64,000 nucleotides of DNA from a virus. The translations under genes and the position numbers were made by a program. The notes under the pieces were generated by a model. It saw only the letters and a list, made by a program, of their open reading frames with translations. It ran no database searches and was not told where the DNA came from. This document shows positions 35,147 to 39,504 of this stretch, in pieces. Location of the stretch: positions 21,826-85,825 of the IMG/VR virus record IMGVR_UViG_3300042301_002266; one strand, written 5' to 3'. Position 1 is the stretch's first letter, and the number at the start of each line of letters is the position of its first letter.

Positions 35147-35226
35147 CAATGTATAACTAAATAATCAGTCTTTTAACTTTCTTTATGCTAGGATAGATAT
35201 ATAGCATTTTAAGGGGAGAAAAAAAA

Positions 35227-35733
35227 ATGAATATTTATAAAACAATTGTTGCATTTATTATTGCTTTTGCACTAATTTTGTCAACATCAGTTACTGCAAA
35301 TGCAGAAGAATCTGTTAGAAAAAAGGCTGACTTTAACCAATCTATTAAAAAAGATAGATGGGTAACTCTTAAGTTTAAAGGTAATAGCCACTTAAAAGGT
35401 AATGGAAATAGGTCTCTATTTTGCTACCAATCATCAATAAAAATGAAAGGCAAAAAGAAGCCTAAATATGTTAAGCTAAGACTGGTTAGGCTTAAGGGTG
35501 GTAATAATGATTCAACAGCCACCAATACATACTATGTGGGATCAAAGCCAAAAAGCACTTTAGTATTTTCAAATTGTTGGGTAATTGAAACAAATTCCCC
35601 AGTAGTTGTACAAATTAGAATTACTGGTGGGAGCAAGTCTTATACTTCAGATATGAGACAGTTTAAAATGTGGACTCCAGGGGCTGATTATCCTGCAGAT
35701 TTTTCTGACTTTATTCCAGAGGGTACACTTTAG
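35227..35733 (+). CDS. secreted basic beta-rich protein
   Basis: Sec signal peptide ending ANA-E; similar to 36237..36626. Confidence 0.7.
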   Translation: MNIYKTIVAFIIAFALILSTSVTANAEESVRKKADFNQSIKKDRWVTLKFKGNSHLKGNGNRSLFCYQSSIKMKGKKKPKYVKLRLVRLKGGNNDSTATNTYYVGSKPKSTLVFSNCWVIETNSPVVVQIRITGGSKSYTSDMRQFKMWTPGADYPADFSDFIPEGTL

Positions 35734-36190: not shown

Positions 36191-36229
36191 AGCCCCTGAC
36201 TTGATTTTGTCAGGGGCTTCTGCTATACT
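36191..36229 (+). promoter_or_regulatory. 10-bp hairpin overlapping a TTGATT-17-TATACT promoter
   Basis: AGCCCCTGAC-TTGATTTT-GTCAGGGGCT; ATG 7 nt after the -10. Confidence 0.65.
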
Positions 36230-36236
36230 GTTACAC

Positions 36237-36626
36237 ATGAGTGAATATGTATCATGGAAAGCTGGAGATCCAAAAATAAAACCAGCACCCCAGAAAATTC
36301 GTCCTAAGACATGGACGCAGTTAGATTTTGGAGCACAAGATTCTATTGTTCCAAAAACCACAGGAATTGCAAACTGGGCTTTTTACATTAATGTATCAGA
36401 GCTTGGTGGAGCAACCGATATGAAGATTCGTTTTACTAGAAATATTGGAACTAAAGAAGCAGACTTTACAGGTCAAAGAATGCTTGATCTAAAGCTAGAC
36501 AATATCCACAGTGGAACATGGTTTTTCAAAGCAAATAAAGGACAGCCAGTAGGTCTTGAAGTTTATCACGCAGGTAAAACAGATATGACAGTTATTACCC
36601 GTGAATTTAAAATGTGGATTCCTTAA
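36237..36626 (+). CDS. hypothetical beta-rich protein, paralog of 35227..35733
   Basis: Shares Q.I....W..L.F and R.FKMW.P motifs with 35227..35733. Confidence 0.7.
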   Translation: MSEYVSWKAGDPKIKPAPQKIRPKTWTQLDFGAQDSIVPKTTGIANWAFYINVSELGGATDMKIRFTRNIGTKEADFTGQRMLDLKLDNIHSGTWFFKANKGQPVGLEVYHAGKTDMTVITREFKMWIP

Positions 36627-38335: not shown

Positions 38336-38365
38336 TTGACATTCTATTATTAACTATGTTAAGAT
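38336..38365 (+). promoter_or_regulatory. sigma70-type promoter, leaderless start
   Basis: TTGACA-18-TAAGAT, ATG 6 nt downstream. Confidence 0.7.
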
Positions 38366-38371
38366 AGAATA

Positions 38372-38875
38372 ATGCGATTCAAAACCTTGGTTTTGATTCC
38401 CGTTATTGCGGTTCTTGCAACATTTGTTGTATCCCTACCAGTAACCCAGAATCAAACCAGTGCTAATGAGGCACCGCAAAAAATAAAGTTAGTTGTAAGA
38501 ACAACTGACACAGATAGAACAAGGCAAGTTGCAGCATCAAGATCTGCACAAAGATTTGCCTTCGGAACCCCAGCATATAATAAACAGTTCGCTGCTTTTT
38601 ATATGAAAGATAAATATAAGTGGGGTAACAAAGAACATTCCTGTTTAGTAAAGCTCTGGAACCGTGAAAGCGGTTGGCGACAAAACGCACATAATAAGAG
38701 CTCTGGAGCACATGGAATACCTCAGTCCCTGCCAGGTAAGAAGATGGCATCAATGGGTTCTGATTGGAAAACAAATCCTGAAACACAAATAAAATGGGGT
38801 TTGAAATATATAAAGGGGAGATATAAAACACCATGTAATGCTTTAGGGCATTCTAATAAACACAACTGGTACTAA
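38372..38875 (+). CDS. secreted or membrane-anchored lytic transglycosylase (SLT-like)
   Basis: N-terminal hydrophobic segment; CL..LW.RESGW...A.N.SSGA.GIPQ...NP.TQI.WGL.YI..RY. Confidence 0.88.
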   Translation: MRFKTLVLIPVIAVLATFVVSLPVTQNQTSANEAPQKIKLVVRTTDTDRTRQVAASRSAQRFAFGTPAYNKQFAAFYMKDKYKWGNKEHSCLVKLWNRESGWRQNAHNKSSGAHGIPQSLPGKKMASMGSDWKTNPETQIKWGLKYIKGRYKTPCNALGHSNKHNWY

Positions 38876-38879
38876 CCAG

Positions 38880-38909
38880 ATGTCCTGAGCAAAGACATTA
38901 AACTGCTCA
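38880..38909 (+). ncRNA. candidate compact H-type pseudoknot
   Basis: P1 ATGTC/GACAT, P2 TGAGCA/TGCTCA, linker TAAAC. Confidence 0.5.
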
Positions 38910-38916
38910 CCATCTA

Positions 38917-38990
38917 GGGGTGTTAGCTTAGTTGGTTAAAGCCCTGAACTCATAATTCAGTAATCGTTGGTTCAAGTCCAACACACCCTA
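38917..38990 (+). tRNA. tRNA with CAU anticodon (Ile2 or elongator Met)
   Basis: GGGGTGT/ACACCCT, CTGAA-CTCATAA-TTCAG, TTCAAGT. Lacks the initiator GGG/CCC anticodon stem. Confidence 0.88.
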
Positions 38991-39016
38991 CGTTAATGTA
39001 GTATAATTTAATACAC

Positions 39017-39088
39017 GCCTCTTTAGCTCAGTGGTAGAGCAACGCTCTTGTAAAGCGTAGGTCTTCAGTTCAAGTCTGAAAAGGGGCT
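39017..39088 (+). tRNA. tRNA-Thr(UGU)
   Basis: GCCTCTT/AAGGGGC, ACGCT-CTTGTAA-AGCGT, TTCAAGT. Confidence 0.9.
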
Positions 39089-39091
39089 CTA

Positions 39092-39189
39092 GGTGGCAGG
39101 AAGTCGTCCTTAGTGATGGTTGATAGTTACAGTTACGAGTCCAGAGAGACACGTTTGCCAGTGTAGGTAAATAAGGTCTTCCTGTCACC
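39092..39189 (+). ncRNA. candidate structured RNA of about 98 nt, family unknown
   Basis: 12-bp closing stem GGTGGCAGGAAG/CTTCCTGTCACC enclosing further helices. Confidence 0.55.
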
Positions 39190-39210
39190 GTTTATTTAAA
39201 AGGAGAAAGT

Positions 39211-39504
39211 ATGAATATCGAAGAGTTTAATGAATTAGTTAAAGAAGGAACTACAATTGTAGATTTCTGGGCAGAGTGGTGTGGTCCATGTAAAATGGTT
39301 TCACCAGTACTAGATGAAATTGCACAAGAAACTGGATCAAAGCTAATTAAGATTGATGTAGACAATGAGCCAGAGTTAGCAAAAGAGTTTGGAATTTCTG
39401 GAATTCCAGCAATTATGATATATAATGATGGAGTAAGAACAAAATCAATTGTTGGTGCAAAACCAAAACCAGCTTTAAAGAAAGTACTATTTGACAATGT
39501 TTAA
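39211..39504 (+). CDS. trxA: thioredoxin
   Basis: DFWAEWCGPCK, GIP; AAGGAG RBS. Confidence 0.95.
   Translation: MNIEEFNELVKEGTTIVDFWAEWCGPCKMVSPVLDEIAQETGSKLIKIDVDNEPELAKEFGISGIPAIMIYNDGVRTKSIVGAKPKPALKKVLFDNV

Follow-up and report, generated by a model that had tools for sequence, protein, structure and literature searches.

What is the 98-nt sequence that separates a tRNA-Thr gene from a thioredoxin gene in a viral genome, and which function could account for its elaborate and hardly varying structure? We examined this question in a window of 64,000 nt (GC content 36%) taken from an 85.8-kb IMG/VR virus record (IMGVR_UViG_3300042301_002266). Among the ~110 open reading frames of the record, Pfam searches recognized genes for WhiB, DNA polymerase III alpha, RecA, DnaB, primase and class II ribonucleotide reductase, along with genes for sugar-modifying enzymes and for lysis, replication, recombination and tail or other structural functions. 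Judging by this gene content (WhiB, replication and tail genes), the record is that of a large tailed phage, and its host is probably a freshwater actinobacterium. Searches with the phage WhiB matched contigs that looked like phage themselves and had been assigned to MAGs from unrelated taxa, and no host could be assigned from WhiB.

All five tRNA genes in the window are on the plus strand (ARAGORN, and Rfam at the gathering threshold) and all five encode C74 but no CCA. The two that precede the element are tRNA-Met(CAU) at 38917–38991 (ARAGORN; Rfam RF00005, 69.2 bits) and tRNA-Thr(UGU) at 39017–39089 (ARAGORN and Rfam). The stop codon of a gene encoding an SLT domain is separated from tRNA-Met by a small plus strand hairpin (38878–38915; the fold of 38874–38916 has −10.9 kcal/mol and z −3.7). 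The discriminator of tRNA-Thr is U39088, and C74 (39089) together with the spacer UA (39090–39091; UU in one lineage) makes three unpaired bases between the discriminator and the first helix of the element. The element itself occupies 39092–39189 on the plus strand, starting with G39092, and an earlier note made from the sequence had placed it correctly, 3 nt past the discriminator. It is followed by a G and a variable A/U-rich spacer with the thioredoxin ribosome-binding site (39190–39210; AAGGAG at 39200–39205), and then by the gene for a 97-aa thioredoxin with a WCGPC motif (39211–39504; Pfam PF00085, E = 5.5e-27), whose start codon in the window is 21 nt past the end of the element.

The only good promoter-like site in this region (38336–38365) lies before the SLT gene. 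A terminator scan detected no terminator-like sites between that site and the tail genes, and we found neither a promoter nor a terminator separating the element from the tRNAs. The element is located inside a long late operon, upstream of genes encoding proteins of 1143 aa and 979 aa, and a single plus strand transcript probably covers the SLT gene, tRNA-Met, tRNA-Thr, the element, the thioredoxin gene and the tail genes. The element is covered by Logan contigs of four metatranscriptome runs from fresh water, including a 125-nt contig that spans 39075–39190; such contigs carry no transcription, end or abundance information. Small differences in Logan depth track sequence conservation and were counted as evidence neither way. 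The element is richer in GC than its surroundings (48% versus 36% for the genome), as had been noticed. The statement that it contains no ORF was almost correct, as it has an ATG frame of 16 codons whose reading frame and length change between variants, and a peptide product was rejected because this frame is not conserved.

The plus strand of the element folds with an MFE of −33.9 kcal/mol (z −4.1), and none of 200 shuffled sequences folded as well; the minus strand reaches −24.9 kcal/mol (z −2.5). In the consensus of 13 variants, a 12-bp closing helix (P1) is followed by a 4 × 1 internal loop, a second helix (P2) and a four-way junction with three hairpins (A, B and C). P1 joins 39092–39103 (GGUGGCAGGAAG) to 39178–39189 (CUUCCUGUCACC) with one G·U pair and is present in both the MFE and the centroid folds, as the earlier note had proposed. 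Its 5′ strand is invariant except for a change of G5 to A in variant L106, and its 3′ strand except for a change of U94 to C in variant L127. P1 is exactly 12 bp long in 13 of 13 variants. In 48 copies the five bases preceding it read CTCTA, in four CTCTT, and the base directly after it is G in all 50 copies with a correctly located P1 end; with A or U before and G after, the helix cannot extend.

Inside P1, the invariant UCGU (39104–39107) lies opposite a single bulged U, which is contiguous with the invariant 3′ strand of P2, AAGG (both within 39173–39177). The 5′ strand of P2, CCUU, which with A21 takes up 39108–39112, forms four conserved pairs with 39173–39176, with C17 changed to A in one variant (L132). 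Hairpin A (39113–39130; GUGAU, loop GGUUGAUA, GUUAC) comprises 5 bp, two of them wobble pairs, and is invariant in all 13 variants. Its pairing probability is divided between two GUUAC repeats (0.49 for the first and 0.41 for the second), of which the second, as AGUUAC, is part of the linker that precedes hairpin B (linker and hairpin, 39131–39152; core stem GUC/GAC). In the loop of hairpin B, a variable middle is flanked by a constant CA on the 5′ side and a constant GA on the 3′ side, and the outer ACG/CGU stem of this hairpin has both sides deleted together in L090 and L132. Hairpin C (39153–39172; GUUUGCC/GGUAAAU, 7 bp, variable loop) is kept in these two variants in a shifted register. 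The inner helices that had been read from the single sequence, namely CCUU/AAGG, GUGAU/GUUAC, GUC/GAC and (G)UUUGCC/GGUAAA(U), are thus all part of the consensus fold. The additional ACAC/GUGU pairing that had been considered possible is not conserved, since variants with the hairpin C loop UUGCA have no GUGU. Two further pairings were rejected, a pseudoknot between UCGU (nt 13–16) and ACGA (nt 44–47), which would be perfect in most variants but loses ACGA to the deletion in L090 and L132, and a contact between the hairpin A loop and UAUCGA in the thioredoxin start region, which the variants do not keep. The fold does not change when the flanks are included, and the ribosome-binding site of the thioredoxin gene then stays unpaired. 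On the plus strand, the element forms an RNA domain of its own that folds independently.

Relatives of the element were collected in several ways. A pattern for the pair of P1 arms retrieved 15 IMG/VR contigs, two internal 18–19-mers retrieved the same set and one more, and the hairpin A 18-mer retrieved 37 metagenome contigs, ~20 of which had the element, the remainder being chance matches in coding DNA. Altogether, the element occurs in ~17 IMG/VR phage contigs and ~20 lake metagenome contigs, in 13 distinct variants of 89–100 nt, and the runs holding the stretch are mostly labelled as lake or fresh water. The tRNA-Thr(tgt) gene ends at an identical distance from the element in 50 of the 50 locus copies with enough upstream sequence, and a WCGPC thioredoxin is encoded within 400 nt downstream in 44 of the 47 copies with enough sequence, both sets including many overlapping fetches of the same contigs. 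There is a single copy per genome, with no partial copies and one genomic context throughout. A blastn search of the INPHARED phage genomes with the element gave no match, a longer query matching tRNAs only, and a degenerate IMG/VR pattern in which P2 and the hairpin A stem were left free returned the same family plus three chance matches in coding regions. An exact 28-mer was found in none of 185,579 species-representative bacterial and archaeal genomes. Covariance model R1 had no matches in two MAGs or in 151 actinobacterial genomes from the class to which an Aquiluna MAG belongs. When 201 genomes of this class, four of them unpublished, were searched with the element by BLAST, only chance matches of 14–17 nt appeared, mostly to the GC-rich first 20 bases of the element. 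Among 75 sources, element-less relatives included, the same model recovered the window's own copy only. The element is confined to one group of freshwater actinophages.

Comparison of the variants revealed an uneven pattern of divergence. Mean pairwise identity is 98.6% for nt 1–43 of the element and 98.2% for its last 17 nt, as against 80% for its middle, 81% for the adjacent tRNA-Thr (minimum 64%, with many compensatory changes), 75% for the spacer to the ribosome-binding site and 77% for the thioredoxin gene, and conservation starts and stops exactly at P1. The alleles of the variable loops are found in several combinations among the variants; therefore the copies are not recent clones, and the freezing of ~60 nt reflects selection, not recent spread. 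Judging from this alignment, ~60 nt of the element are under very strong purifying selection. Both of the changes in P1 keep pairing, as the G·U pair becomes A-U in L106 and G-C in L127. In hairpin C, a U-A pair is replaced by U·G in four variants, and the pair at the base alternates between G·U (six variants) and G-C (five). As such wobble pairs work only in plus strand RNA, they argue for the plus strand RNA reading. Covariation is weak (one pair changed on both sides; covariation term +0.14) because the sequence hardly varies. Taken with the better plus strand fold, the plus-strand-only wobbles, the lack of an intervening promoter or terminator and the sharp edges of conservation, these data bear out the initial view of a functional, co-transcribed plus strand RNA.

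Close relatives of the phage do without this RNA. In related phages that lack the element (L004–L008, L012, L014, L016 and L049), the same tRNA-Thr is followed directly by the thioredoxin ribosome-binding site, and the covariance model revealed no diverged copy of the element in them. On the thioredoxin gene tree, the distribution of the element requires four changes, at least three of which are forced by well-supported branches; a locus with the element (L117) and one without it (L008) are sisters on this tree. The flanking genes are mosaic, and in the table of local gene presence and absence no gene tracks the presence of the element. Because close relatives pass directly from tRNA-Thr to thioredoxin, the element is a dispensable accessory with a history of repeated gain, loss or exchange.

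The element does not belong to any catalogued class. Scans of a 451-nt region and of a 110-nt segment against the 4227 families of Rfam 15 gave no match on the element even at E ≤ 10, the one exception being a nematode snoRNA family that the minus strand matched by chance, at 12 bits. At the gathering threshold, the whole window yielded the five tRNAs and no other Rfam family. A tRNA was rejected, as ARAGORN called no genes in its default, intron-allowing and relaxed (ps80) modes and there was no RF00005 match at E ≤ 10. In the mitochondrial mode ARAGORN gave one meaningless match, on the opposite strand of the element. The earlier description of the element as not a cloverleaf is correct to this extent, although its interior is still a four-way junction, and of the proposed tRNA likeness only the closing helix, which resembles an acceptor/T-stem stack, has held up. 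An intrinsic terminator was rejected, because none was called by the terminator scan and the 'loop' would be 74 nt long; the tail after the element is GUUUAUUU in the window and GAAUAUUU or GCUAUAUU in variants, with no conserved U tract. A MITE or IS200-IS605-derived element is not supported, on account of the one copy per genome, the one context and the lack of copies in element-less relatives, and a repeated promoter or operator was rejected on finding no second copy of any 14-mer (≤2 mismatches) beyond chance.

The closest analogues are the small stable RNAs of phage tRNA operons, namely species 1 and species 2 of T4 (rnaC/rnaD). These are structured RNAs other than tRNAs that are encoded within a phage tRNA cluster or at its end, co-transcribed with tRNAs, released by tRNA-processing enzymes and dispensable, and their function is unexplained. 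Extra small RNAs in phage tRNA clusters have long been known, their roles being unsolved. By description, the element is likewise a structured non-tRNA in a phage tRNA transcription unit, on the same strand; it differs from the T4 RNAs in being shorter (89–100 nt) and in lying between a tRNA and a protein gene instead of at the end of a pure RNA operon. The element defines a genuine new family of phage RNAs, absent from Rfam and under unusual constraint, and its nearest counterparts in kind are these unexplained stable RNAs.

Two better-known groups of RNAs share some of its features. The YrlA RNAs carry a GNCGAA(N)G Ro-binding motif in their closing stem and have T and D arms, and in M. smegmatis RNase P cleaves YrlA, which is not a tRNA but has an acceptor-like stem of 7 bp, and CCA is added to it (Chen et al., 2014; PMC4201824). 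Like the element, YrlA and Y RNAs bear a multi-hairpin module on a long helix formed by their ends, and some of them are encoded by phages. The element, in contrast, has no GNCGAA(N)G motif in P1 and no tRNA-like T and D arms. The TROVE domain (PF05731) was absent at E ≤ 1 from the 85.8-kb record (estimated to be 80% complete), control genomes being positive. The match to RF02553 (YrlA) in the 451-nt region falls on the two tRNAs (38939–39068, E 1.5) and there was none when the element was scanned alone. The suggestion of a Y-like decoy, for which a Ro60/TROVE gene would be expected, has accordingly been dropped. HDV-like theta ribozymes are found behind phage tRNAs in Caudoviricetes and have been proposed to trim the 3′ trailers of tRNAs (Kienbeck et al., 2024; PMC10879173). 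Like the element, they are structured RNAs of comparable length that follow a phage tRNA within a few bases. Their fold is a double pseudoknot and they occur in gut phages with recoding, whereas the element has a nested closing helix and a four-way junction and occurs in lake actinophages. An HDV-like theta ribozyme is not supported, as bases 1–12 pair with the 3′-terminal 12, bases 1–7 have no internal complement and there was no match to an HDV family. Hammerhead, twister, twister-sister, hatchet and pistol ribozymes are not supported, for lack of a match at E ≤ 10, and the element contains no CUGANGA...GAAA core.

We tentatively favour the view that the element is an accessory RNA module that would be freed by tRNA-processing enzymes and bind a conserved factor through its invariant core. 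Excision of tRNA-Thr would necessarily leave an RNA end no more than 3 nt from P1, the 5′ side of the element being set free by RNase Z or trimming past the discriminator, by RNase P cutting before G39092, or by both. The RNase P cut could occur because the 12 bp of P1 equal the length of a stacked acceptor and T stem, which is the length that RNase P measures (PMC4919913). The product would have its 5′ end locked in a stable helix, with at most three unpaired bases, and might be either a free small RNA of ~100 nt, its 3′ end perhaps also set by tRNA enzymes, or the domain with which the thioredoxin-tail mRNA begins; in either form we would expect it to be stable. P1, UCGU, P2, hairpin A and the CA and GA ends of the hairpin B loop would then be bound, with specificity for their sequence, by a conserved partner from the cell or the phage. 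No RNA-binding or RNA-processing protein family was recognized by Pfam among the ~110 ORFs of the 85.8-kb record. When proteins recognize RNA, it is unusual for both strands of a 12-bp A-form helix to be held invariant in sequence, and this model does not account for it.

The outer part of P1 has a specific likeness to tRNA-His. The 5′ GGUGG and 3′ UCACC of the element, that is, its first and last five bases, equal G-1 GUGG...UCAC C73 of the tRNA-His genes in five actinobacterial genomes, and the outer five pairs (G:C, G:C, U:A, G:C, G·U) are identical to G-1:C73 through G4·U69, the wobble included. The G-1:C73 pair is the main identity mark for HisRS (PMC4357726; PMC3064791). The probability of such an acceptor match by chance is ~1–2%, in an after-the-fact estimate that allows for ~45 tRNA species. 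In addition, bases 19–26 (UUAGUGAU, with a GUG triplet) resemble a His anticodon loop with one extra A, and an alternative arm that displays UUAGUGAU is 3.9 kcal/mol worse than the MFE fold. P1 thus resembles the acceptor arm or minihelix of tRNA-His in its G-1:C73-type top and in the length of the acceptor/T-stem stack; unlike tRNA-His, the element has no D arm, T loop or cloverleaf and encodes neither C74 nor CCA. The base that follows the element is G, whereas all five tRNA genes of the phage, which likewise lack CCA, encode C74, and this counts against the accessory RNA module favoured above. It is quite improbable that the element acts as a tRNA-His-type minihelix, in which RNase P would leave G-1:C73, 3′ trimming and CCA addition would follow, and HisRS-like recognition, perhaps even histidylation, would result. 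We saw no tRNA-His in the related phages, which carry tRNA-Tyr, tRNA-Asn and tRNA-Asp. A minihelix of this kind would be the 'His' member of a phage set otherwise made up of tRNA-Tyr, tRNA-Asn and tRNA-Asp, and might, for example, act as a decoy or replacement where a host factor attacks tRNAs with GUN anticodons (the queuosine family).

The main rivals of the accessory RNA module place its function in the transcript itself. P1, located 3 nt from a 5′ monophosphate end, might shield the thioredoxin-tail mRNA from 5′-end-dependent RNase E and RNase J with no trans partner at all. The element does lie exactly between tRNA and mRNA, three unpaired bases lead into a very stable helix, the thioredoxin ribosome-binding site is free, and dispensability fits a tuning device; the small hairpin before tRNA-Met could likewise cap the 3′ end of the upstream mRNA, a possible role that it might assume after RNase P cleavage. 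Stem-loops at the 5′ terminus stabilize mRNAs of the ompA/papA type (Emory, Bouvet & Belasco, 1992; Bouvet & Belasco, 1992; cited in PMC3997798), and the element would similarly present a stable helix a few bases from a 5′ end if cleavage follows the discriminator. However, the ompA/papA stabilizers are simple hairpins with no sequence constraint, and any stable hairpin would serve, which leaves ~60 invariant bases, the hairpin A loop, the UCGU bulge and the four-way junction unexplained; moreover, the other tRNA cluster of the window, which ends at 35147, has no comparable structure after it (z −0.8). A protective role for the downstream mRNA is plausible, whereas protection as the whole explanation is unlikely. 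Still less likely is a cis element acting in the nascent transcript of the thioredoxin-tail operon, either as a ligand- or protein-binding leader or as a polymerase-modifying RNA of the processive antitermination (HK022 put-like) kind. Its position just ahead of the thioredoxin gene, in the window as in 44 of the 47 copies, and in a long late operon ahead of the two very long genes would suit such a role, and the invariance would fit binding to a conserved machine, e.g. RNA polymerase or the ribosome. Nevertheless, conservation does not reach beyond P1, the spacer before the ribosome-binding site varies freely, there are no downstream terminator-like sites that would need override, and the relatives express the same operon without the element. 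A cis switch on the thioredoxin ribosome-binding site, one form that the cis element of the earlier note could take, is unlikely, as that site is not sequestered, no alternative pairing with P1 is evident and an invariant 12-bp helix is not switch-like.

A ribozyme was also among the original suggestions, and with the known classes unsupported (no Rfam match, topology unlike HDV) it survives as a new self-cleaving class that would cleave the RNA at its own 5′ terminus or immediately ahead of it and trim the tRNA-Thr 3′ trailer in the manner of the theta ribozymes. This analogy draws on the fixed distance of a few bases behind a phage tRNA, which is the theta ribozyme context (PMC10879173), on the many invariant unpaired bases around a multi-helix junction and on a size typical of small ribozymes. 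We nevertheless regard it as very doubtful, given that the search at E ≤ 10 covered HDV-like, hatchet, twister, twister-sister, pistol and hammerhead families, that the closing helix is nested and not an HDV double pseudoknot, that the hammerhead core is missing and that relatives mature the same tRNA without the element. The least probable reading, which we consider highly unlikely, puts the function in the DNA, where the 12-bp arms would be the terminal inverted repeats of a miniature mobile element, or the sequence would serve as a site of protein binding or recombination, the RNA fold being incidental. The patchy presence among close relatives (at least three forced changes, with L117 and L008 as sisters) and the sharp boundaries would agree with this, and so would the inverted repeat, as sequence invariance of both arms is more typical of DNA recognition and the two P1 variants make the repeat perfect. 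Against it, all copies share a single genomic context, there is one copy per genome with no partial copies, the flanks show no target-site duplication, the exact 28-mer is absent from the bacterial and archaeal genomes searched, and hairpins A and C conserve G·U and U·G pairs that are possible only in plus strand RNA.

So strong a constraint implies that the element has a specific molecular partner, either in the abundant Actinobacteria of fresh water or in their phages. The element is a clean study case, being short, with fixed spacing, natural presence and absence, and ~60 frozen bases beside drifting neighbours. If enzymes that act on tRNA (RNase P, RNase Z, the CCA-adding enzyme or HisRS) recognize its helix, it would mean that phages reuse tRNA maturation for non-tRNA effectors or, alternatively, for the punctuation and protection of phage mRNA.

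A tandem direct repeat, AGTTAC AGTTAC, is found at positions 39125–39136 of the window and allows hairpin A of the folded element (39113–39130, with a GUGAU/GUUAC stem) to pair in either of two registers, whose probabilities are almost the same (0.49 and 0.41). One of the two repeat units has been lost in the 89-nt variants of the element (loci L090 and L132).

In all five tRNA genes of the phage (34897–35147 and 38917–39089) the discriminator is followed by an encoded C74, and none of the five encodes the CCA. The tRNA sets vary among the related phages (the IMG/VR relatives G203 and G207, loci L158 and L160, as well as loci L004, L021, L027 and L164); tRNAs for Tyr(GUA), Asn(GUU) and Asp(GUC) occur among them, and a His(GUG) tRNA in none. 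The alleles of tRNA-Thr diverge by up to 36% between phages. Within the 25-nt spacer that separates tRNA-Met from tRNA-Thr there is a perfect TATAAT hexamer (39002–39007), some 9 nt upstream of the tRNA-Thr 5′ end; it has no good −35 hexamer to accompany it and was not called in the promoter scan.

The M23 peptidase gene lies between the genes for two paralogous proteins (35227–35733 and 36201–36626), which only some of the relatives carry (L002, L003, L023, L088, L092 and L093). These paralogues are missing from all loci that lack the element behind tRNA-Thr and also from several loci that have it. Close relatives of the phage WhiB protein are encoded on short genome contigs (L138, L139 and L140–L143) that have been assigned to MAGs with the labels Arenimonas, Aquiluna, Acidimicrobiaceae and Chitinophagaceae. 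The contigs probably belong to phages and ended up in these bins by accident of binning, and the MAG labels therefore cannot be used to name the host.

The 41-nt spacer between the stop codon of the SLT-domain gene and tRNA-Met (segment 38874–38916) is the site of a small hairpin, with a computed folding energy of −10.9 kcal/mol (z = −3.7; 0 of 200 shuffled sequences folded equally well). Once RNase P has cut, this hairpin could cap the upstream mRNA.
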